A stretch of DNA of 63,967 nucleotides from Patescibacteria group bacterium (GTDB lineage: Bacteria; Patescibacteriota; Patescibacteriia; UBA9934). The stretch covers positions 1 through 63,967 of the forward strand of contig JBAZUI010000005.1 of assembly GCA_041661425.1 (NCBI GenBank), written 5' to 3'. A program made the position numbers and the translations under genes. The first letter of the stretch is position 1, and every line of letters starts with the position of its first letter. The notes below the pieces were generated by a model that made no database searches, was not told the origin of the DNA, and worked only from the letters and a program-made list of their open reading frames with translations. This document shows positions 806 to 63,675 of the stretch, piece by piece.

Positions 806-1855
806 ATGGGAAAAGTTGTTGGAGGGTTTGGAAAACATAATCCCGAAGGACAATCAGAGGAATCGTACGAGCGCGGAGTCGCACGAAAAAGCGTCATTCA
901 ATTTTTAGCGGAGAAACCCCCAGCAGTTTCGCATCGGCTATTTCAAATACTGATTGAAAGAGCCCAAGAGACGCCGGAAGAGGTTGAATTGACGGGATTT
1001 TACAATCGAGTCGTTGATTTTCAAAAATTGCTCGATGAAAAAACATTTGAAGGTTTCGTAAAAACAAAATCAAAGAAATTTAATGATAAAAAAGGAATTC
1101 TGGAAGAAATCGAGGGAGTAACGGATGTCACAAGACAAACCGCTGCAGAAAATTTGTTCCTGGCGTGGGAAAATCTCTATGATGCGCAAGTGCACATTCT
1201 CGATATGGAAGGCATTGATGAAAATCACCCAGAAAGGGAGAGAAAAATTCAAGAAGCAACAAAAAAATGGGATGATCGGACAAAAGTATTTCGAGAACAG
1301 ATCATGAATATCGAGCAAGAACTTCGTCCGGTTATTGCAGCGTATGATCGCTTGGATTGGCAGGTAAAAGATAAGGCGAAACAGTACGGTCTTGATGGTG
1401 CTTTCGAACGTCTAAAATCAAGAATCCCAAGTGCCAAACCAAATATGGAACGCTATGTTCGGGATGTCGAAAAGCTTTTTTCTGATATTGAGCGTCACGA
1501 AAATGAGGCTCGGGTCGCACTTCCTCAACCAACTGAACAGCCAGAAGAGGTTCCTCTCACGCCAGAACAAGAACAGAAGATCGTGGGAGAGGTTCGAAGA
1601 TTAATCACGCAGGGAAAAATTAAAACTCTGAATCGATATTGCGAAGTTAGCGAGGCGATTTTTTGGGAGAATGGGCAATCGATTACAACAGATAATTTTG
1701 AAGGAAATCCCGCAAAGCTCATGAAGGGAAAGACGCGACATGGGGATCATGTTCTTGAAGAGAAGAGTTTATCTCTTGGAAAACTTGTTGTTATCGGAAG
1801 GATTGAACATCCTCGCGATCCACCATTTTTTTATCTTGTTTGGAAGCGAGAGTAG
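806..1855 (+). CDS. Hypothetical E/K-rich protein; sole cargo of the insertion bracketed by 5S 3'-end repeats
   Basis: Long ORF. The first ATG is at 806 (the track ORF starts at TTG 779). The TAG stop (1853-1855) lies inside the second copy of the 5S-derived repeat. No recognisable catalytic motif. Confidence 0.7.
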   Translation: MGKVVGGFGKHNPEGQSEESYERGVARKSVIQFLAEKPPAVSHRLFQILIERAQETPEEVELTGFYNRVVDFQKLLDEKTFEGFVKTKSKKFNDKKGILEEIEGVTDVTRQTAAENLFLAWENLYDAQVHILDMEGIDENHPERERKIQEATKKWDDRTKVFREQIMNIEQELRPVIAAYDRLDWQVKDKAKQYGLDGAFERLKSRIPSAKPNMERYVRDVEKLFSDIERHENEARVALPQPTEQPEEVPLTPEQEQKIVGEVRRLITQGKIKTLNRYCEVSEAIFWENGQSITTDNFEGNPAKLMKGKTRHGDHVLEEKSLSLGKLVVIGRIEHPRDPPFFYLVWKRE

Positions 1856-4518: not shown

Positions 4519-4783
4519 CGAAGGACTTTTGTATTTGAGTGCAGAATGAGAAGAGGCAGAGGCTTTTCGCGAGACGAATACAAAACAAGGAGAAGCTTTA
4601 GATTTAGATGCAGCACGAGGAAAAAACCGAGCAACGAGGAGACGTGTGCAGATTTATTTTCGAAGGACTTTTGTATTTGAGTGCAGAACAAGGAGAAAAC
4701 CGAGTAGCAAGGAGCCGTACATAGATGTACGGTGACGAAGCACGGAGGTTTTCGACAAAGTTATGCGCCAAATACAGAAGTCC
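4519..4783 (+). repeat. Nested/tandem array of family A repeats (two truncated units plus one full unit at 4665-4783)
   Basis: CGAAGGACTTTTGTATTTGAGTGCAGAA occurs at 4519 and 4661 (142-bp period). A left-arm-only copy sits at ~4606-4645. Confidence 0.85.
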
Positions 4784-4794
4784 TTAAATAAAAA

Positions 4795-5608: not shown

Positions 5609-5613
5609 AGAAT

Positions 5614-5633
5614 TGGTGGACTTGAGGGGATTC
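5614..5633 (-). repeat. Orphan copy of the tRNA-Ala 3' end (T-loop to CCA)
   Basis: TGGTGGACTTGAGGGGATTC is identical to 5991-6010. Confidence 0.95.
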
Positions 5634-5990
5634 AGCTTCAGCTCTCGGCTTGCCGTCGCAAGCCTCGGCCCTGCCTACCGGCAGGCAGACTAGCCACCCG
5701 CCTTCGCAAGGCTTCGGCGGGCAGGCCGCCTACAATGGCGGAGTTTATCCACCGAAGCTCCGATTTATCCGTCGTAGCTTTAGCGAAGACGGAAGGAGCG
5801 AAGGAGGAGCGTTCGAATCCCTTCGCAAGCCAAATGGTTGACTTGCGTCTAATTTAATCAATAAATTTCCACGTATTTTGCTTCAGATACAAGGCATGGG
5901 TGGCAGTCGAGGAAACGTACCCAAATGTACGTTGACGAAAACTGACGGGACCCATAACACAGTAGCTTAACAAAATTCGTGGAAATTTCT
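5634..5990 (-). mobile_element. Insert between tRNA-Ala and its displaced 3' end: family B element (5634-5847) plus a family-A-like hairpin (5863-5988)
   Basis: The family B sequence is shared with 63358-63550 and 40810-40930. It abuts the tRNA fragment through the ...CCGAGAGCTGAAGC end (minus strand). Confidence 0.7.
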
Positions 5991-6067
5991 TGGTGGACTT
6001 GAGGGGATTCGAACCCCTGACCTCCTGCTTGCAAAGCAGGCGCTCTAACCAGCTGAGCTACAAGCCC
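5991..6067 (-). tRNA. tRNA-Ala (anticodon TGC), CCA encoded
   Basis: Manual fold: acceptor GGGCTTG/CAAGTCC, anticodon arm CCTGC-TTTGCAA-GCAGG, T-arm AGGGG-TTCGAAT-CCCCT. Confidence 0.95.
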
Positions 6068-12039: not shown

Positions 12040-12858
12040 TTATTCTACGTAGACCGCCCCTGTCAACTGCGAATTGTAACTATCGAAGAACCCGAATGTT
12101 CCAGCGGTTTTAAAACGTGAAATAAAGCTTTCACCTGGATTGAGTGTTCCAGTACCCCACGTGAGCGCTTCCGCCGTTGCCGTATGAGTGATGGTATCGT
12201 TATTTGTGAATCGAACAGTCCCATTGGCATTGATCGTCACTGAAATTGGGCTATAGCCGGAGCTCGTAATGGAGATCTCTCCCGGCTCCTCGAGCGCTTT
12301 GTCACTATTAATATCCGCAACACTCGCGGTCACTGTTGAAGGAACGAACTCGGCGGCGTCATCGATGGCTTCGCCAACCGTGTAGTTACTAAAGAAGCTA
12401 TCCGGGACATCGTGGATTTTTGTATTCCAACTGCTTCCATAGAGTGAGATTGCAATACTCTCCGTGCTGACCCAACGAAGGGTTCCGCTCTGCGCCACGG
12501 CGTAGACTTTTGGATCGGTATTGATTTTAATCATCATCACCCCCGGACGATAGGTGACGTTTCCACCGATTTGGATTTTTGATAGATCGGTATCAGAGAG
12601 GAATTTTACCGTGTCGAAATTTGAATACCACGTAAAATAGGTATTGCTATTTGGAAAGACATAGCGTAGCCCGTCGCGGCCCATATAATAAACGGCGGAA
12701 TACGTTGTGCCGCGAATAAGATCGCCGGCAACCACGGAGCTAAGGGGTGTTGTTGCTCCTGCTTTCTCGGGCACGATCGCAAAGAAAAGTCCCATCCCGA
12801 CTAAAAGGAAGGCAGAAAAAGCAACCACGGTCTTCTTAAAAGACAAAGCAATACTCAT
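12040..12858 (-). CDS. Secreted protein: N-terminal domain shared with the FG-GAP protein C-terminus, plus a C-terminal cupredoxin-like domain without obvious Cu ligands
   Basis: Signal/TM segment. The block VYYMGRDGLRYVFPNSNTYFTWY...KINTDPKVYAV...RWVSTE aligns with 25250-25684. Confidence 0.7.
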   Translation of the reverse strand: MSIALSFKKTVVAFSAFLLVGMGLFFAIVPEKAGATTPLSSVVAGDLIRGTTYSAVYYMGRDGLRYVFPNSNTYFTWYSNFDTVKFLSDTDLSKIQIGGNVTYRPGVMMIKINTDPKVYAVAQSGTLRWVSTESIAISLYGSSWNTKIHDVPDSFFSNYTVGEAIDDAAEFVPSTVTASVADINSDKALEEPGEISITSSGYSPISVTINANGTVRFTNNDTITHTATAEALTWGTGTLNPGESFISRFKTAGTFGFFDSYNSQLTGAVYVE

Positions 12859-12894
12859 AGTTTATTTATTACGACACTAGTATAGCACATTTTT

Positions 12895-13536
12895 TTAGGT
12901 CTCAAGAAATTTTTGATAGGCTGCTCCCGGATCCTCTGAATTCCAGAGGCTTGATCCAAGATAAAAACGTTCAATACCAAGAGAAATCAATGTTTTTTTC
13001 ATGGCGAGCGTGATACCGCCATCAATCCCCACGGGAAGCCCTGGGAACAACTTGTGGATTTCTTTTATTTTTTCAAGAACAGGTTCCCCGAGAAATGGTT
13101 GCCCGGAAGCTCCTGGAGGAACGCCCATCATAATAAGGTAGGAAAGAAGCGGTAGATCATCCTGGATCATGGAAAGATCGGTTGTGGCTTCGATGGCGAG
13201 CCCCACGGATTTACCCGAGGCGAGAATCGCTTCAATGGTTTGTGAGCGATGATCGATTTCCGGGTGAACAGTGATGCACGAAATCGATGGAAGAAGCGAA
13301 AACCATTGGGATAGGACAGCAAGAGGATCCTTGACCATGAAATGAATTTCAAGATCCGGAAGTGAGGGGAATGCGGTGATTTCCATGGGCGATGCCCATG
13401 ATGAGGCACCAAAAAGTGAGCCGTCAAGAACGTCAATCTGCCAAAGAGGCGCGAGAGCGCGAAGACCCTCATGACACAATTTTTGAAAACATTCCTCCTT
13501 TGAGTGAGCGAGAACCGTTGGGATAAGTTGGGTCAT
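12895..13536 (-). CDS. rpe: Ribulose-phosphate 3-epimerase-like protein
   Basis: IDVLDG, HFMV, PGASGQPF and GIDGGI motifs occur in Rpe order. Confidence 0.7.
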   Translation of the reverse strand: MTQLIPTVLAHSKEECFQKLCHEGLRALAPLWQIDVLDGSLFGASSWASPMEITAFPSLPDLEIHFMVKDPLAVLSQWFSLLPSISCITVHPEIDHRSQTIEAILASGKSVGLAIEATTDLSMIQDDLPLLSYLIMMGVPPGASGQPFLGEPVLEKIKEIHKLFPGLPVGIDGGITLAMKKTLISLGIERFYLGSSLWNSEDPGAAYQKFLET

Positions 13537-20632: not shown

Positions 20633-20789
20633 ATATGATTCATCTTGTAATCATTTAGAAAACGGGCCACTTCTGTGATAAAACGTCGAAAAAGTCGAAT
20701 AGAGGCTCTTTGCGTTTTATTTGCATTTATTTTGCAAATTTTTTGTGCATTCCTACCGACTCCGGCCTTCTCTTATCCCGCGTATGTGG

Positions 20790-21300
20790 CAAATTCTGAT
20801 CTAGTCATTGCTGCGCCTTACGACACCGCGACTGCAGGCGTCGGGCCATTGGGCCTTCTCGCAATGACGTGGGGGTATCGCGTCAAAACTCACCCTGCCG
20901 TCATTGCGAGCCCGCAGGGCGAAGCAATCCGTTCGAATAGATTGCTTCCCGCCTTCGCTCATTCCGTCTTCGCTAAAGCTACGACGGATAAATCGGAGCT
21001 TCGGACGGGCAGGCGTCGGCCATGAGGCCTTCTCGCAATGACGGCAGAAAGGAAGCTCCGAAGTTATCGTGTTGCTTATGTTGTCATTGCGGGGTGCGGA
21101 TGGGTCTATGCCATCCCTCTGCCATATCGCGAGGAACTTGTGAGAATTCTCGGTGGCGTAGCAACCCATCCCCCTGCCGTCATTGCGAGGAGTGGATGAA
21201 AAATTATTCGGTGACAGAGCGATCCGTGCCCCCTGCCGTCATTGCGAGGAACTGTCTTACATTTTTTGGTGACGAAGCAATCCAGTATTGCCAATGGGTG
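20790..21300. repeat. ~500-bp mosaic of hairpin-forming repeat modules upstream of the FG-GAP gene
   Basis: CGTCATTGCGAG occurs at 20899, 21178 and 21236, with its complement CTCGCAATGACG at 20858 and 21033. GCAGGCGTCGG..GGCCTTCTCGCAATGACG is repeated at 20835 and 21010. A family B/C hairpin module sits at 20964-20992. Confidence 0.8.
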
Positions 21301-35134: not shown

Positions 35135-35645
35135 GTATTCAGGAAATGCGTAAGCCGAATTCTGTTCCAAATGCCGAAGCATTGGGGCGGTCATCTCTCT
35201 AGGGCGTCTCTTGCGAGACGTCTCATGCGAGCTACCTAATTTGCTCTTGCACCAAGGCAGGTTTGCCACCGCTCCATGTCGCCATGGAGGGAGACTGGTG
35301 GCTCCCGTCAGGGAACCTCCAATCACTTTTCACCTTTTGTTCTACGCAGTGGAACAATCCTGAGTACCGAGCTTGTCGAGGTATCGAAGGGTCACGTTGC
35401 ACCTCTCGACTCGCTTTGCTCGCTCGGGATCGTTTTACTGCGTAAAACTAGTATTGTCTCTGTGGCGCTATCTCTGGGTTTCGGGAAGGGACCGAGGAAC
35501 GGATAAATCCAGTTCCTTGAACTCTTCCTATGTCCCGGTTGCCGTTAGCAACGCCTTTTGATTTTCGATCTTGCGATCGAAAAGGTGTTCGGACTTTCCT
35601 CTTGGGATCCGAAGATTCCAAGTAACCACCACCATTTCCTGAATG
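35135..35645 (-). ncRNA. rnpB: RNase P RNA, bacterial type A, unusually long (~510 nt)
   Basis: On the minus strand: GAGGAAAGTCCGAACAC (P4 5'), GGTGCAAGAGCAAATTAGG, CTAGAGAGATGACCGCCC, and ACAGAATTCGGCTTAC (P4 3'). P1 pairs ATTCAGGAAATG with CATTTCCTGAAT. Confidence 0.9.
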
Positions 35646-40577: not shown

Positions 40578-40788
40578 GGTGCCGGGCAGGATGGCTGTAT
40601 CATTCTTCGTTCCGACTGACGAGGTAGGCTTGAATGGCCTGTTCGCGTCCTCCTACGCTCCTCAGCATTACCTCGGAGCTTCGGAGGACAGCCGTAGCTT
40701 CAGCCGACAAGCAGGGTGGCTTGCCAGCCGTTTTATCCACCGTAACTCTAGTGAAGGTGGAAGCTTCAGCGATAGCTGAAGCGAAGGC
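40578..40788 (-). repeat. Family C tRNA-trailer element (copy 3), following the displaced tRNA-Leu 3' fragment
   Basis: Minus strand begins GCCTTCGCTTCAGCTATCGCTGAAGCTTCCACCTTCACTAGAGTTACGGTGGATAAAACGG..., near-identical to 51257-51470. Confidence 0.85.
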
Positions 40789-40809
40789 TGGTGGGCGGAG
40801 AGGGACTCG
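40789..40809 (-). repeat. Orphan copy of the tRNA-Leu(CAG) 3' end (T-loop to CCA)
   Basis: TGGTGGGCGGAGAGGGACTCG is identical to 40936-40956. Confidence 0.95.
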
Positions 40810-40935
40810 GCCTCGACTCTCGGCTTGCCGTCGCAAGCCTCGGTCTGGCCACCGCCTCGCCATTCTGCCTGCTGGCAGAATATGGCTCCGGCGTTCGAGT
40901 CCATTAACAAGCCAAATGGTTGGCTTGTCGACCCT
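40810..40935 (-). mobile_element. Short family B element inserted between tRNA-Leu(CAG) and its displaced 3' end
   Basis: Shares CTCGGCTTGCCGTCGCAAGCCTCGG and GTTCGAGTCC..ACAAGCCAAATGGTTGGCTTGT with the B copies at 5634 and 63358. Confidence 0.7.
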
Positions 40936-41021
40936 TGGTGGGCGGAGAGGGACTCGAACCCTCAAGAGATTACTCTCACAAGCTTCTGAAACTTGCGTGT
41001 CTACCGTTTCACCATCCGCCC
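40936..41021 (-). tRNA. tRNA-Leu (anticodon CAG), long variable arm, CCA encoded
   Basis: Manual fold: acceptor GGGCGGA.., anticodon arm CAAGT-TTCAGAA-GCTTG, T-arm GAGGG-TTCGAGT-CCCTC. Confidence 0.9.
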
Positions 41022-50125: not shown

Positions 50126-50202
50126 GGGTCTGTAGCTCAGTTGGTTAGAGCGCCGAGCTTATACCTCGGTGGTCGATGGTTCGAGTCCATCCAGACCCAC
50201 CA
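50126..50202 (+). tRNA. tRNA-Ile (anticodon TAT), CCA encoded
   Basis: Manual fold: acceptor GGGTCTG/CAGACCC, anticodon arm CCGAG-CTTATAC-CTCGG, T-arm GATGG-TTCGAGT-CCATC. The body resembles bacterial tRNA-Ile. Confidence 0.85.
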
Positions 50203-50365
50203 GCCTTCGCTTCAGCTATCGCTGAAGCTACGGCTGGCAGGCCATCCTGCCTTCCACCTTCACTAAAGTTACGGTGGATAAAACGGCTGGCAGGCCACCC
50301 TGTCAGCTGAAGCGAAGGCTGTCCTCCGAAGCTCCGAGGCAATGCCGAGGAGCGTAGGAGGACAT
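50203..50365 (+). repeat. Family C tRNA-trailer element (copy 1), starting at the nucleotide after CCA
   Basis: GCCTTCGCTTCAGCTATCGCTGAAGC...CCACCTTCACTAAAGTTACGGTGGATAAAACGG...GCTGAAGCGAAGGCTGTCCTCCGAAGCTCCGAGGC...GGAGGAC. Confidence 0.85.
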
Positions 50366-50416
50366 GAACTGAATTAGTTATTGCCGAAGTTTCCGCTTTT
50401 CATCGATACCGCTTCT

Positions 50417-51046: not shown

Positions 51047-51170
51047 GAGAACTTTTCCTTTTGGATGCAGAACAAGGAAGAACCAAGGCTTTTTGTGAGA
51101 CGTACCCAAATGTACGTTGAACAAAAAACGAAGGTTCTGACGAAGCTATGCGCCAAAAGGAGAAGTTCTC
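51047..51170 (+). repeat. Family A structured repeat (variant core), between the membrane-protein gene and tRNA-Val
   Basis: Outer arms GAGAACTTTTCCTTTTGG / CCAAAAGGAGAAGTTCTC. Core GATGCAGAACAAGG...ACGTACCCAAATGTACGT...GACGAAGCTATGCGCC. Confidence 0.8.
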
Positions 51171-51256: not shown

Positions 51257-51490
51257 GCCTTCGCTTCAGCTATCGCTGAAGCTTCCACCTTCACTAGAGT
51301 TACGGTGGATAAAACGGCTGGCAAGCCATCCTGCTTGTCGGCTGAAGCGAAGGCTGTCCTCCGAAGCTCCGAGGCAACGCCGAGGAGCGTAGGAGGACGC
51401 GAATAGGCCATCAAGTCTGCCATCTCGTCAGTCGGAACGAAGGATGCCCTCCGAAGCCCCGTTTACAGCGGGGCGAAGGAGGGCAGGATT
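51257..51490 (+). repeat. Family C tRNA-trailer element (copy 2), starting at the nucleotide after CCA
   Basis: Same sequence family as 50203-50365 and 40578-40788, with an extended 3' part (CTCGTCAGTCGGAACGAAGGATG...). Confidence 0.85.
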
Positions 51491-51526
51491 TCATGAAAAC
51501 TTTCTGTTAACGAAGACTATTCGGAT

Positions 51527-51769
51527 ATGTTTTTTGTGTATATTATTCAAAGCATGATTGACCGAGATCAATTTTATACTGGTTTTACTGATGACATTGA
51601 AAATCGAATAACGAAACATAATAAAGGTGACTCGTTTCATACAAAAAAATACAGGCCATGGAAATTACTTTTCTATAGTGCTTTTGAAGAAAAGAAAAAG
51701 GCTCTTTGTTTCGAAAAGTATCTAAAAACAGGATCAGGTATAGCTTATAAGAGAAAACATTTCATCTAG
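51527..51769 (+). CDS. Stand-alone GIY-YIG nuclease-domain protein
   Basis: FVYIIQS..QFYTGFT (GIY..YIG), R..KHN, and an 80-aa size typical of the UPF0213-type. Confidence 0.75.
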   Translation: MFFVYIIQSMIDRDQFYTGFTDDIENRITKHNKGDSFHTKKYRPWKLLFYSAFEEKKKALCFEKYLKTGSGIAYKRKHFI

Positions 51770-52659: not shown

Positions 52660-54141
52660 TTATTTTTCACTTTGATATTTTTTTGCCATCTCCTCGGCTT
52701 GTGGTGGTGTTTGGATTTTTCCAGCAAGTTGCGCATCCCGAATGGCATCGAGGACTTCGCGGTAGAGTGGGCCCGGGGGAATTCCCATTTCCTTCAGATG
52801 GGAGCCAGAAAGAAGTCGTGGCAGACGATCCTTTGAACCTTGAAGCTCGGCCATGCCGATCATGGCTTCGCGAATGCGTTTGGCAATGAGCAATCGTTCA
52901 CGCGCAACTCCATGTTGATCGCGAGCAATGTGGGTGGCGTGCATGAGCATTAAAAGATTCCGTCCGCGATCGGAAAGGAACATGGATTCGAATTTTGATG
53001 GTCGCATGGTTGCAGGATCGATCATTTGAAAATCATGAAGATGCTCCAGGAGCCAGAATAATTCCTCGCAAGAAATATTGGCATGATGATGGCGAGAAAA
53101 TTGATGAAAATAATAATCCTCGCAAATACGAATGGCCGTTGTGGAAACGGAATCCTCCAAGAAAGAGAAAAGCCCGGCTAAAAGAAGGGTTGGGGATGCG
53201 TGTTTCACTCCATAGGAAGCAAGAAAAGTCGGCTTTTCGAGTGTCTGGAGCGTTTGAAATGTTTTTTGGAGAATGGATTCGCGATCATCTTCGAGCATGT
53301 TCTCAAGTGCCGCGAGTTCGGGCATGAACAAGTGGAGCGCTCGGCTTTCAAGCCAAAGACGAATCGTGTGCACGGGATGCGCCACAAATCCAAGCAAAAA
53401 TTCCCGACCGATCATTTCGCGCGGAATCACGTAGATGTGTTTTCCGTGTTCATTGAGTGTGGTGTTCTGCAAGAGATTGAGGTTCGCTTTGAGTGCGCGC
53501 CACGTGAGTTCCTCAATGCCAAAATTCAATTGACTGGCAAGACGAAGCGCCCGAAGCATGCGCGTGGCATCTTCGGCAAAACGTTGTTCCGGAAGAAGCA
53601 CCGCACTGAGCGTTGCGGCAGACAGATCTTGCAAGCCAAGAAAAGGATCAATAAGTCGATGTTCGCGTAATTCATACGCCATGGCGTTCACGGTGAAATC
53701 GCGTCGTGATAAATCTTCTTTAATGGGGAGATCGGCATCAAAACGAACATCCAAGCTTTTTCTTCCAGCAGTGTGAAAGGTGGGGTCAAAGAGATGTTCT
53801 TTTCGCGGAAGGGCGATATCAATGGGCAGACGACTCGTACATCCGTGAGGAACAAATTTGAATGTCCCAAAGCGCCCAACGAATTCCGCAGCGCCATGTT
53901 GCAAAAGCCAACGCTCAAGAATGGGCGGTTCGACATGACGAATCACTAAATCAATATCTTGCGGCAATCGACCGAGCAAAACATCTCGAAGCGTACCGCC
54001 GACCAGAAAAATTTCCGCCTGCGGAAAATGAGAATAAAAAAGCGCGGTCCACGTGAGCCGTGGCTCGCTCTCGAGATAAAGAGAGATCCGCTCCTCCGGA
54101 GGGATGCTCTGCGACGCATAATGCACGAGCATGGTTTCCAT
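52660..54141 (-). CDS. cca: CCA-adding enzyme / poly(A) polymerase-family tRNA nucleotidyltransferase
   Basis: LVGGTLRDVLLGR..DIDLV and RRDFTVNAM motifs. Confidence 0.85.
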   Translation of the reverse strand: METMLVHYASQSIPPEERISLYLESEPRLTWTALFYSHFPQAEIFLVGGTLRDVLLGRLPQDIDLVIRHVEPPILERWLLQHGAAEFVGRFGTFKFVPHGCTSRLPIDIALPRKEHLFDPTFHTAGRKSLDVRFDADLPIKEDLSRRDFTVNAMAYELREHRLIDPFLGLQDLSAATLSAVLLPEQRFAEDATRMLRALRLASQLNFGIEELTWRALKANLNLLQNTTLNEHGKHIYVIPREMIGREFLLGFVAHPVHTIRLWLESRALHLFMPELAALENMLEDDRESILQKTFQTLQTLEKPTFLASYGVKHASPTLLLAGLFSFLEDSVSTTAIRICEDYYFHQFSRHHHANISCEELFWLLEHLHDFQMIDPATMRPSKFESMFLSDRGRNLLMLMHATHIARDQHGVARERLLIAKRIREAMIGMAELQGSKDRLPRLLSGSHLKEMGIPPGPLYREVLDAIRDAQLAGKIQTPPQAEEMAKKYQSEK

Positions 54142-61003: not shown

Positions 61004-61156
61004 GGACCTACACCTTTGGCGCATAACTTTGTCAAAAACCTCCGCACTTCGTCACCGTATCCCGCCCATGGCGGGACCCCGCCAAAGTGAAACGACGGCG
61101 GGGCGGCTCCTCGTTGCTCGGTTTTTTCCTCGTTCTGCATCAAAACGTGTAAGTCC
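61004..61156 (-). repeat. Family A structured repeat (inverted orientation, enlarged apical hairpin), directly after the argS stop
   Basis: The reverse complement reads GATGCAGAACGAGGAAAAAACCGAGCAACGAGGAGCC...GGTGACGAAGTGCGGAGGTTTTTGACAAAGTTATGCGCCAAAGG. Confidence 0.85.
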
Positions 61157-62418: not shown

Positions 62419-63127
62419 TCAGAGCACCGAAGCGATTTCTTCTTCGATGCGTCTTGCCGCCTGGATGGGAGTCCCGATTTCCGGCGGTGGTTTTGTGATC
62501 GGGCGCCCGATCACGACAAACGACGCACCGGCCTTCACCGCTTCCGCGGGAGTCATGATCCGCTTCTGGTCGCCGGCCACCGCCCATGCGGGACGGATAC
62601 CGGGCGTGATTCTCAAAAGGCCATCGAGTTCGCGGTGCTCTGAGGAATCTGAGCTCCTGCGGCGAGCAGATGATGCCGTCGCAACCGGCGATTTTCGCGT
62701 CGCGTGCCATTTGCAAAACCTTCGCTTTGGTCGTCCCGCCAAAAATGAGTTGGGCGGTATTTTCCTCCAGCGAAGTCAGGACCGTGACGGCGAATACAAG
62801 CGACGACCCACGGTTGTCGACGGCGGCCATCATCGCCTCGACTCCCGCCGAAGCGTGGACATCGAACATTTTCACGTTGAGTCCCGCAACGACTCTGGCC
62901 GCGCCAGCGATCGTATTTGGGATGTCGGAGAACTTGCCGTCGAAGAACACCTGTCCTCTGAGCGCGTGAATACATTCGACGACCTTGGGAGCTCCCACAG
63001 CCGTCAGAAGTTCAAGTCCAACCTTGAAACTTCCGACATACGAGGCGAGGTCTCTCACATGAGCCTCCGCCTCTTCCAAGTTGTCGACATCCAGCGCCAC
63101 GATGACTCTTTTTCTTGCTTCCATCAC
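62419..63127 (-). pseudogene. pyrF: Orotidine-5'-phosphate decarboxylase, frameshifted
   Basis: The N-terminal part ([36 protein letters not shown]) is in one frame. The C-terminal part ([28 protein letters not shown]) is in another, with the switch near 62640-62655. Confidence 0.85.
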
Positions 63128-63166: not shown

Positions 63167-63336
63167 CCGCCTGCACAAGGGCGGAGTTTATCCACCGAAG
63201 CTCCGATTTATCCGTCGTAGCTTTAGTGAAGACGGAAGGAGCGAAGGAGGAGCGTTCGAATCCCACGCAAGCCAAATTGTTGGCTTGCTATGAAATACCA
63301 ACCCACAAGGTTCCAATGATTTGAAACATTCTGGGT
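63167..63336 (-). mobile_element. Older, 5'-truncated tandem copy of the family B element plus spacer
   Basis: Near-identical to 63429-63598 (262-bp period). Confidence 0.75.
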
Positions 63337-63357
63337 TGGTGGACGCCAAGGGATTCG
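63337..63357 (-). repeat. Orphan copy of the tRNA-Val(TAC) 3' end (T-loop to CCA)
   Basis: TGGTGGACGCCAAGGGATTCG is identical to 63599-63619. Confidence 0.95.
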
Positions 63358-63598
63358 GCTTCAGCTCTCGGCTTGCCGTCGCAAGCCTCGGCTTAGCCAC
63401 CCGCCTTCGCAAGGCTTCGGCGGGCAGGCCGCCTGCACAAGGGCGGAGTTTATCCACCGAAGCTCCGATTTATCCGTCGTAGCTTTAGCGAAGACGGAAG
63501 GAGCGAAGGAGGAGCGTTCGAATCCCACGCAAGCCAAATTGTTGGCTTGCTATGAAATACCAACCCACAAAGTTCCAATGATTTGAAACATTCTGGGT
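63358..63598 (-). mobile_element. Family B element (63358-63550) plus spacer, inserted between tRNA-Val(TAC) and its displaced 3' end
   Basis: Shares almost its whole length with 5634-5847. Confidence 0.75.
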
Positions 63599-63675
63599 TG
63601 GTGGACGCCAAGGGATTCGAACCCCTGACCTTCTCGGTGTAAACGAGACGCTCTAACCAGCTGAGCTAGGCGTCC
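63599..63675 (-). tRNA. tRNA-Val (anticodon TAC), CCA encoded
   Basis: Manual fold: acceptor GGACGCC/GGCGTCC, anticodon arm TCTCG-TTTACAC-CGAGA, T-arm AGGGG-TTCGAAT-CCCTT. Confidence 0.93.

Follow-up and report, generated by a model that had tools for sequence, protein, structure and literature searches.

Two head-to-tail copies of a small non-coding element at the tRNA-Val(TAC) gene of a Patescibacteria contig, and a possible targeting of tRNA T-loops

The stretch of DNA described here, contig JBAZUI010000005.1 of a Patescibacteria group bacterium (63,967 nucleotides (nt), analysed at its full length and hereafter called the window), has its source in a groundwater metagenome and belongs to a Patescibacteria-like genome. 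Downstream of its tRNA-Val(TAC) gene lie approximately 1.7 head-to-tail copies of a small, non-coding, hairpin-rich element. We give about even credence to the reading that these are two head-to-tail copies of a miniature non-coding, non-autonomous element which targets the T-loop of tRNA genes, and that the second copy entered the restored target and pushed the first outward. The same architecture occurs at seven tRNA genes in at least three genomes, namely at tRNA-Val, tRNA-Ala and tRNA-Leu(CAG) in the window and at tRNA-Tyr, tRNA-Pro, tRNA-Gly and tRNA-Arg on two metagenome contigs; elements of the sequence family present at tRNA-Val (family B) are termed B-type.

Read in the sense of the tRNA, the locus consists of the tRNA, a 48-nt linker, 193 nt of family B, a 21-nt tRNA fragment, a second 48-nt linker, 122 nt of family B without its last 71 nt, about 39 nt of AT-rich DNA and then pyrF. 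A repeat search recovers a direct repeat of 191 nt with a period of 262 (63167-63357 versus 63429-63619), which is 99% identical between its copies, with two mismatches at 63227/63489 (T/C) and 63309/63571 (G/A) and no others. The 21-nt sequence CGAATCCCTTGGCGTCCACCA corresponds to positions 56-76 of tRNA-Val, including the encoded CCA; it has two exact matches in the window, one within the tRNA (63599-63619) and one at 63337-63357, against a chance expectation of 0. An earlier note on this DNA had described an intact tRNA-Val(TAC) on the minus strand, a unit made up of a 21-nt tRNA fragment, family B and a 48-nt spacer, and a second, near-identical but truncated unit about 40 bp from pyrF. 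The tRNA is confirmed by ARAGORN and Rfam, the coordinates and parts of the unit are correct, and the truncated unit, which differs at 2 of the 191 positions, joins the AT-rich DNA directly, 39-40 nt upstream of the pyrF start at 63127. The features of the locus are as follows.

63599-63675, minus strand: tRNA-Val(TAC), intact (ARAGORN; Rfam tRNA, 70 bits)
63599-63619, minus strand: inner copy of the 21-nt repeat, the last 21 nt of tRNA-Val
63337-63598, minus strand: unit 1, complete, made up of the 21-nt fragment, 193 nt of family B (63358-63550) and the 48-nt linker
63551-63598, minus strand: linker of unit 1, 48 nt, with a hairpin ACCAACCCAGAATG...CTTTGTGGGTTGGT that takes in the ACCA end of the tRNA in predicted folds
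63529-63550, minus strand: 'LE' hairpin of unit 1, GCAAGCCAA CAAT TTGGCTTGC, 9 bp with a 4-nt loop
63516-63526, minus strand: putative 'guide' of unit 1, GGGATTCGAAC, the exact reverse complement of tRNA-Val positions 53-63
63429-63515, minus strand: body of unit 1, with GC-rich hairpin modules (TCCGTC..GACGGA, GGATAAA words)
63358-63428, minus strand: 'S' part of unit 1, 71 nt, a CCCGCC..GGCGGG hairpin followed by the extended 'RE' hairpin
63370-63387, minus strand: inner stem of the RE hairpin of unit 1, GGCTTGC GACG GCAAGCC
63337-63357, minus strand: displaced distal tRNA-Val fragment, positions 56-76, 21/21 identical to the inner copy
63167-63336, minus strand: unit 2, outer and truncated, without the S part and without an outer tRNA fragment
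63289-63336, minus strand: linker of unit 2
63267-63288, minus strand: LE hairpin of unit 2
63254-63264, minus strand: putative guide of unit 2
63167-63253, minus strand: body of unit 2

The putative guide of unit 1 copies the last pair of the T-stem, the T-loop and the 3' strand of the T-stem, and it stands 2 nt from the foot of the LE hairpin; an inverted match of 11 nt is reached in 1 of 1000 shuffles. A search with the body motif gives 7 matches, where 0 are expected. Folding of the 262-nt unit as single-stranded DNA is predicted to be stable for both strands (z = -6.8 and -4.8), and the predicted fold brings CGAATCCC, with which the tRNA fragment begins, into pairing with GGGATTCG, the internal complement, so that the linker and the LE hairpins are enclosed. 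The linker is specific to this locus and bears no relation to the linkers at tRNA-Ala, tRNA-Leu and tRNA-Tyr. The S part is kept in the copies at tRNA-Ala, tRNA-Leu, tRNA-Tyr and tRNA-Pro and is missing from the outer copy at tRNA-Val.

The tandem is borne out by sequencing data that are independent of the window assembly. In run X1, a groundwater metagenome represented by short-read unitigs and contigs, a 2087-nt contig of depth 10.9 extends from pyrF across the junction between flank and outer copy to 63196, 30 nt into the outer copy. Two unitigs cover the remaining junctions, namely 63315-63387 (linker, 21-nt fragment and S part; depth 12.7) and 63405-63458 (S part and inner copy; depth 8.6), and the segment common to both copies (63235-63322) reaches a depth of 22.7, about twice that of the flank. 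A single 238-nt contig from run X2, which belongs to a second study, spans 63279-63498; its S part is longer by about 20 bases. All junctions exist, and the copy number is two. The earlier note had suggested read depth as a check for a single unit duplicated in assembly, and X1, with the junctions at about 1x and the shared part at about 2x, answers it in favour of two copies. It is very improbable that the chromosome carries one truncated copy, the unit with the S part being a 262-nt circle or an assembly mis-join: although the four junction k-mers are the same under either configuration, the 191-nt repeat is longer than short-read unitigs resolve and the window holds at least one probable consensus error (a 2-nt indel in pyrF), the depths of the junction unitigs (8.6-12.7 versus 10.9) are chromosomal, the shared part stands at about 2x, and a stable 1:1 circle of 262 nt is implausible. 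Additionally, the 64-kb contig passes through rRNA genes and many repeats at which short-read contigs break, which suggests that it was built from long reads. A search for long-read runs turned up none.

Two further B-type elements lie within the window. BLAST against the window places a copy of family B downstream of tRNA-Ala(TGC) (5613-5846, with 86-93% identity to the tRNA-Val region) and a part of it downstream of tRNA-Leu(CAG).

5635-5990, minus strand: element at tRNA-Ala(TGC) (tRNA 5991-6067), with LE hairpin at 5825-5846, putative guide at 5811-5821 and RE hairpin at 5647-5664
5614-5634, minus strand: distal tRNA-Ala fragment TGAATCCCCTCAAGTCCACCA, 20/21 identical to the 3' end of tRNA-Ala
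40810-40935, minus strand: minimal element of 126 nt at tRNA-Leu(CAG) (tRNA 40936-41021), with LE hairpin at 40907-40928 and RE hairpin at 40822-40839
40893-40902, minus strand: putative guide of the Leu element, GGACTCGAAC, matching the Leu T-loop TTCGAGT
40789-40809, minus strand: distal tRNA-Leu fragment CGAGTCCCTCTCCGCCCACCA, 21/21 identical, with a repeat of another family (family A) next at 40600-40788

A metagenome scan that used the end hairpin as its pattern returned two contigs only, L007 and L008. In the former, tRNA-Tyr has a B-type element, after which come the 21-nt fragment of that tRNA and a hairpin with a T-run that resembles a rho-independent terminator and is presumably the terminator of the tRNA itself. 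The latter carries tRNA-Pro with a B-type element and a 10-nt fragment, together with tRNA-Gly and tRNA-Arg, the elements of which end in CTCC TGTAA GGAG / GTTCC TGTAA GGAAC hairpins and are followed by distal fragments of 19 nt (Gly) and 7 nt (Arg). In sequence the seven elements fall into two unrelated families, one at tRNA-Val, tRNA-Ala, tRNA-Leu, tRNA-Tyr and tRNA-Pro, and a second at tRNA-Gly and tRNA-Arg; their sizes range from 110 to 356 nt, and a tandem is found only at tRNA-Val, the other six elements being single. The two elements of the second family (L008, 1756-1870 and 2014-2180) follow the same plan of hairpin, GT(G), inverted T-loop copy, end hairpin ...CCTGTAAGG... and tRNA fragment, and in the Gly element the linker, too, has a complement in the tRNA, 9 nt of the acceptor 3' strand.

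The order of parts common to these elements, in the sense of the tRNA, is intact tRNA, linker hairpin, 9-bp LE hairpin, spacer, inverted T-loop copy, GC-rich hairpin body, RE hairpin and tRNA fragment. The linker differs at every tRNA and is usually a hairpin, and at tRNA-Val, tRNA-Pro and tRNA-Gly this hairpin pairs with the 3' end of the adjoining tRNA. Compensatory change marks both end hairpins: the LE hairpin is 100% paired in five elements with 4 of its 9 pairs changed on both sides, and the RE hairpin, which has 14 pairs, is likewise 100% paired in five elements with 4 pairs changed on both sides. The outermost pair of the RE hairpin uses C56, the first base of the flanking tRNA fragment. 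The distal fragment starts at this base at tRNA-Val, tRNA-Leu, tRNA-Tyr and tRNA-Pro, and at tRNA-Ala only the first base differs (20/21).

Separated from the LE hairpin by a spacer of 2-5 nt, commonly GT, the putative guide measures about 9-12 nt and copies, as the reverse complement, the stretch of the host tRNA between G53 and approximately position 63. Among the B-type elements it reads GGGATTCGAAC at Val and Ala, TGGATTCGAAC at Tyr, GGACTCGAAC at Leu and CGAGATTTGAAC at Pro, and in the second family GCGATAATCGAA at Gly (7 nt exact, or 11/12 with one mismatch) and GGATTCGAA at Arg. It follows the T-loop class of the host in all seven elements (GTTCGAATCC, GTTCGAGTCC, GTTCAAATCTCG, and, with 1 mismatch, TTCGATT-TCGC). 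In all seven, the longest inverted match of an element to its host tRNA is rare, being reached in 0-24 of 1000 shuffles per element; it falls on the T-loop and the 3' T-stem strand in every B-type element and on the acceptor strand at tRNA-Gly. Two other ideas were rejected. The inverted copy is not a degenerate inverted tRNA 3' half together with the LE hairpin, as the putative T-stem is unpaired and the hairpin is the same at tRNA-Val, tRNA-Ala, tRNA-Leu and tRNA-Tyr whatever the acceptor stem; restriction-type cleavage at TT^CGAA is at odds with the T-loops of Leu and Pro, which are not palindromic.

The reach of the family was explored with several searches. Rfam, at the gathering threshold and at E-values up to 10, matched no element and recognized only tRNAs, rRNAs and RNase P, and scans of viral contigs with the end-hairpin pattern and with the core motif returned 0 matches. 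Only spurious open reading frames (ORFs) cross the elements, without coding remnants; one of them, used as a protein query, also gave 0 matches. RNA runs share only tRNA words with the region. A 28-nt core motif was discarded as a marker of the element, as a scan of a genome collection placed it at six loci in very different metagenome-assembled genomes (MAGs) and it proved to be a widespread GC-rich repeat word. This core word, CCTTCGCTAAAGCTACGGCGGATAAAACGG, is repeated in frame within a UvrD-like helicase ORF of a 1.47-Mb MAG (L002, 7290-7400; peptide SSFAKASSFAKATADKTADK), which resembles the Rickettsia palindromic elements inside genes, and it is also found in MAGs labelled Candidatus Zipacnadia, Bacteroidales and Akkermansia muciniphila.

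According to the earlier note, whole units at non-tRNA loci would indicate ordinary expansion of a tandem repeat; none lies in the window, where only the 56-nt body module stands alone away from a tRNA (20949-21004, at a depth above 200 in X1). Part of the similarity between the Val and Ala cores may come from separate spread of this module. The solo module, 96% identical to the family B body, abuts a hairpin at approximately 20921-20948 (GAAGCAATC CGTTCGAATA GATTGCTTC) that has a T-loop-like loop and no tRNA nearby; the surrounding intergenic block, 20700-21300, is packed with GTCATTGCGAGG...CGAAGCAATCC repeats.

Several observations argue that the elements were inserted. At tRNA-Val, as at the six other tRNAs, the tRNA is intact and its earlier 3' end, or a second copy of that end, lies displaced beyond the element, which upholds the earlier claim that insertion regenerates its target. 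At the tRNA-Tyr of L007, the terminator-like hairpin stands after the distal fragment instead of after the tRNA. A syntenic relative (L019), in which an SBP gene, tRNA-Leu(CAG) and the RNase J gene keep their order and RNase J is 68% identical, has unrelated AT-rich DNA after the tRNA and no element. Family A follows the distal fragment at tRNA-Leu(CAG) but comes directly after the CCA at tRNA-Ile and tRNA-Val(GAC). Furthermore, the distal fragments decay, with one change at tRNA-Ala and truncation at tRNA-Pro and tRNA-Arg, which fits a by-product of insertion rather than a functional part.

The orientation of the elements is also uneven. The GC skew is positive across the whole window, and the three element-bearing tRNAs lie on the minus strand, opposite the G-rich strand, whereas the three element-free tRNAs lie on the plus strand even though their T-loops (GTTCGAGTCC) match the Leu-type guide perfectly. 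The tRNA-Tyr of L007 obeys the same rule, so that it holds at 4/4 element loci with a clear GC skew; this orientation bias relative to replication is suggestive. In the element-bearing orientation, the antisense strand of the tRNA is the lagging-strand template, and it is complementary to the guide read on the antisense strand of the element. Taken with the predicted fold of the unit, the strand bias points to single-stranded DNA.

On this basis, a mechanism can be proposed for the preferred reading, re-entry of a miniature element at a restored T-loop target. The internal complement would act as a guide by pairing with the target in single-stranded DNA or, alternatively, would fold back on the element's own tRNA fragment and mimic the target. 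An enzyme supplied in trans would then cut and join at T55|C56, candidates being an HUH/Y1 transposase of the IS200/IS605-RAYT kind (RAYT, REP-associated tyrosine transposase; REP, repetitive extragenic palindrome) or a tyrosine recombinase acting on folded single strands. A second copy could enter at the same point and push the first outward because the restored tRNA would again offer the target, and the outer copy would have lost its 71-nt S part and outer fragment, or may never have had them. More tentatively, and with the chances rather against it, the elements may represent an undescribed class in Patescibacteria, in which an internal guide of 10-12 nt pairs with the T-loop and T-stem of a tRNA on the lagging-strand template and directs the trans-acting enzyme to T55|C56, positions 56-76 being duplicated or replaced, the specificity being reprogrammable and re-insertion building arrays. 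In the literature on miniature elements targeting tRNA genes in bacteria and in the Candidate Phyla Radiation, we found no description of such an element.

A number of points weigh against this interpretation. The sample is small, with seven elements, and the strand bias comes from four loci, at approximately p = 0.05 within the window. Pfam detected no integrase, transposase, recombinase, HUH protein or reverse transcriptase among about 50 ORFs of the window and 10 ORFs of L007, so the elements are taken to be non-autonomous; the genes that it did assign are ordinary Patescibacteria housekeeping genes. The putative guide is specific to a T-loop class rather than to a single tRNA: the Ala element matches its own host over 11 nt but tRNA-Val over 13 nt, and for the Leu element the match is 10 nt with its host and 12 nt with tRNA-Ile. 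The G-T pairs in the hairpins of the Ala element favour folding of the tRNA-sense strand, while the IS608-like topology favours the antisense strand. The distal fragments of L008 at tRNA-Pro (10 nt) and tRNA-Arg (7 nt) are short, and the missing S part of the outer tRNA-Val copy requires an extra event. The model also leaves unexplained why elements with similar cores (Val versus Ala, 86-93% identical) carry different 21-nt fragments and unrelated linkers. A target duplication of 21 bp would explain the different fragments, but we know of no precedent for it among hairpin-ended elements; a fragment carried by the element from one tRNA to another would make a chimeric tRNA. Cas1-type integrases make long duplications, and casposons target tRNA 3' ends.

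How the second copy arose admits more than one route. It follows from the coordinates that a single tandem duplication of one segment cannot yield the order tRNA-21-B-S-21-B-flank. A complete unit may have entered, by site-specific or homologous recombination, a locus with a copy that already lacked the S part; two complete units may have been stacked, with later deletion of the outer S part and fragment; or a single unit may have been amplified before being trimmed. That both copies have the same locus-specific linker shows the tRNA-Val lineage to be the source of the second unit. The last of these routes, in which one insertion was followed by local amplification through unequal crossing-over, replication slippage or excision and Campbell-type re-integration via the 21-nt or 191-nt homology, and later by deletion of the outer S part and fragment, is a possible but not a probable account. 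It draws on the near-identity of the copies (2/191 differences) and their shared 48-nt linker, on the direct repeats that flank a unit and are classic substrates of amplification, and on X1, where the shared segment forms one unitig at about 2x and no separate contig lies on the inner-copy linker, so that the difference at 63309/63571 may be absent there. Amplification nevertheless needs a second event as well, as no pure tandem duplication gives the observed order; none of the six single elements has been amplified, and it would account for the copy number only and not for the existence of the element. We favour re-entry at the restored target over amplification. The earlier note had proposed serial insertion that stacks older copies outward: the restored target stands, but the serial order is not settled, as local duplication predicts the same sequence, and under serial insertion and local duplication alike the truncated outer copy calls for an extra deletion or for an ancestral copy without the S part. 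Base-by-base comparison of the units, by which they were to be dated, yields the 2/191 differences, too few to date the order of the copies; in TTCGCTAAAGC the outer copy has A where the family has G, a single derived change that weakly fits its being the older.

Two further explanations concern the nature of the elements themselves. They could be decayed remnants of integrase-borne islands or prophages in tRNA genes, internal deletions having left DNA proximal to attL and attR, since direct repeats of about 20 nt from the tRNA 3' end that start in the T-loop are a hallmark of tyrosine-integrase elements. Williams is said to have set out, in 2002, a scheme of tRNA sublocations with a T-loop class of crossover for such elements. 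Arrays also have a precedent, in islands that lie in tandem at a single tRNA or tmRNA gene. Prophage att sites offer an example of tRNA duplications, of 22-43 nt (PMC3119063). A remnant origin is nonetheless improbable in view of the conserved architecture of seven elements with compensatory changes in both end hairpins, which random decay would not give, and of the lack of coding remnants, of an integrase in the window and of matches in the viral contigs scanned. It is also unlikely, if marginally less so, that the elements are non-mobile, structured 3' trailers co-transcribed with the tRNA and conserved for a function in processing, termination or regulation. Their predicted structure is strong, linker hairpins with T-rich tails follow directly after the CCA, family A also starts exactly after the CCA at three sites in the window and in two other genomes, and the G-U-type pairs of the Ala copy would be tolerable in RNA. 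However, a function for the duplicated tRNA 3' fragment is hard to see, the fragments decay (to 10 nt at Pro and 7 nt at Arg, with one change at Ala), the syntenic relative has no element, and Rfam gives no match. An ordinary minisatellite was rejected as well: Tandem Repeats Finder (TRF) reports no array, the unit boundaries fall at tRNA position 56, and single units stand at other tRNAs.

The neighbouring gene, pyrF, lies outside the element.

62419-63127, minus strand: pyrF, encoding orotidine 5'-monophosphate (OMP) decarboxylase (Pfam)

In the window pyrF is split over two frames, which match positions 2-158 and 157-212 of the Pfam OMPdecase profile. An extra GA after 62641 in the X1 contig reinstates a frame of 235 amino acids (aa), and the repaired protein is 100% identical to a database protein (P0001) that comes from the same 2087-nt X1 contig; the supposed pseudogene of the earlier note, which amounts to a single 2-nt frameshift absent from the X1 reads, is therefore a consensus error or a rare variant. 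The foreign composition reported for the gene holds, with a GC content of 58.5% versus 47.6% for the window and a GC content at third codon positions (GC3) of 0.67 versus 0.46-0.51 in neighbouring genes. The link that the same note drew between pyrF and a tRNA integration hotspot does not hold, and pyrF was rejected as island cargo at tRNA-Val: no third tRNA-Val fragment bounds the far side of the GC-rich block anywhere in the window at up to 3 mismatches, the gene is not decayed in the reads, and its homologues (70-74% identical), found in many Patescibacteria MAGs and in Nitrospirae, stand in unrelated gene contexts, none with tRNA-Val. In one MAG (L020, 1321-2268), pyrF again has a tRNA gene upstream, tRNA-Leu(CAA), at about 150 nt and free of any element, and in a Candidatus Nealsonbacteria MAG (L014), of another Patescibacteria lineage, it adjoins a weak Y1_Tnp match. 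The exact arginyl-tRNA synthetase (ArgRS) and DAGK proteins, used to find the locus in relatives, led only to a Logan contig that breaks at a repeat.

The window has other repeats as well. The hairpin-rich family A occurs at 50203-50380, 51257-51500 and 40600-40788, exactly after the CCA of tRNA-Ile(TAT), of tRNA-Val(GAC) and of the distal tRNA-Leu fragment, respectively; it has a closing stem GCCTTCGC...GCGAAGGC followed by GTCCTCC...GGAGGAC, and neither a tRNA fragment nor an inverted T-loop copy. A-like elements follow tRNA-Met and tRNA-Thr in two unrelated genomes (L001, 2180-2330; L007, about 12790-12920). Family C comprises long imperfect hairpins of about 120 nt at 472-595, 4519-4787, 51048-51169 and 61004-61156, where short-read contigs break; one copy lies in the 23S-5S spacer and one right after the stop codon of ArgRS. 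A perfect direct repeat of 42 nt (696-737 and 1846-1887) combines the final 23 nt of the 5S rRNA with 19 nt of trailer sequence, which form the 3' strand of the 5S processing stem. Its copies flank a segment of 1150 bp with a 349-aa ORF (806-1855, plus strand), which has no match in Pfam, PHROG or PDB and no relative among 1.84 billion representatives; the segment has the look of a further insertion by which a stable RNA gene regains its 3' end.

The RNase P RNA (bacterial class A; 35135-35642, minus strand) measures 508 nt against a model of 367 positions, approximately 140 nt extra. tRNA-Val(GAC) and the family A element that follows it have, 270 nt downstream, a small stand-alone GIY-YIG nuclease gene (51527-51769, plus strand), and a second GIY-YIG gene adjoins SecG in the syntenic relative (L019, 7032-7343). 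The anticodon of tRNA-Ile(TAT) (50126-50202, plus strand) is uncommon in bacteria. CCA is encoded in 6/6 tRNAs of the window, despite a gene resembling that of a CCA-adding enzyme (PolyA_pol head domain) at 52660-54141.

Patescibacteria genomes are streamlined and are thought to be poor in mobile elements. The elements account for breaks of short-read assemblies beside tRNA genes and for the spurious ORFs and 'tRNA fragments' there, and the tRNA-Val tandem, the only array among the seven elements, is a natural locus at which to set re-insertion against recombinational expansion. If the complement does guide insertion, these would be very small natural agents of nucleic-acid-guided, site-specific DNA insertion that leave an essential gene intact, and the loci would offer a concrete place to look for the enzyme.

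From each of the known systems compared, the elements described here depart in at least one feature that defines that system. Elements mobilized by tyrosine integrases at tRNA genes share with them the insertion point in the T-loop, an identity block of about 21 nt that reaches to the 3' end, the rebuilding of the tRNA with a fragment on the far side, and the capacity to give tandem arrays on repeated use. However, they encode an integrase, usually by the att site, whereas the present elements are non-coding, measure 110-356 nt and carry no integrase. The attP of tyrosine integrases has inverted core-type sites at the crossover; here the sequence left of the distal fragment (GAGAGCTGAAGC, GAGAGTCGAGGC) is unlike the 5' T-stem strand, and the complement of the target lies 45-200 nt away, beside a hairpin. 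A further difference is that similar cores here carry different tRNA fragments. Miniature transposable elements with inverted repeats (MITEs) were rejected, as no terminal inverted repeats exist beyond the self-palindromic hairpins, and the repeat is position-specific and 21 nt long, versus a duplication of 2-10 bp.

Closer in form are the palindrome-associated transposable elements (PATEs) of the IS200/IS605 group and the REP sequences and their hairpin-forming doublets (REPINs), which depend on TnpA and RAYT. Like the present elements, they lack coding capacity on account of their length and have a hairpin close to either end but no terminal inverted repeats. Their short sequence by the hairpin foot, complementary to the target or cleavage site, and their orientation bias relative to replication may have counterparts here in the putative guide and in the apparent strand bias; analogous to IS608, the order on the antisense strand is guide, 2 nt and hairpin. 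They differ in that PATEs and IS608 leave the target unduplicated, while here each copy in good preservation has a 21-nt direct repeat at its flanks, and in that guides of the IS200/IS605 type measure 4-5 nt and pair non-canonically, against a Watson-Crick complement of about 9-12 nt. In addition, no Y1 gene lies within the 64-kb window.

The integrative mobile elements exploiting Xer (IMEX), such as CTXphi, RS1 and TLC, which use XerCD at dif, similarly restore their target on one side and stack successively, with older elements outward. The recombination site of CTXphi arises when two inverted sites resembling the target fold in single-stranded DNA, a pairing of the kind predicted here for the guide and the tRNA fragment. 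The target of IMEX, however, is dif and not a tRNA T-loop, and even the smallest IMEX is about 25 times as large as the present elements, which show no sign of Xer. Elements of the IS110/IS1111 group, with their bridge and seek RNAs, resemble them in an element-encoded complement of the target, a specificity changeable via a short segment and a non-coding part of about 200 nt; they differ in using a DEDD/serine recombinase, a two-loop bridge RNA and a 2-nt core repeat, while neither such a gene nor an Rfam match is found here. Among eukaryotes, Dada DNA transposons are elements that PMC8869645 describes as inserting specifically into multicopy small RNA genes, including tRNA genes. As protein-coding DDE transposons, they are similar by analogy only. 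Should the complement indeed guide insertion, tRNA T-loops would join the targets that are read by base pairing, alongside the tetranucleotides of IS608, the bridge-RNA targets of IS110 and the sites of group II introns.

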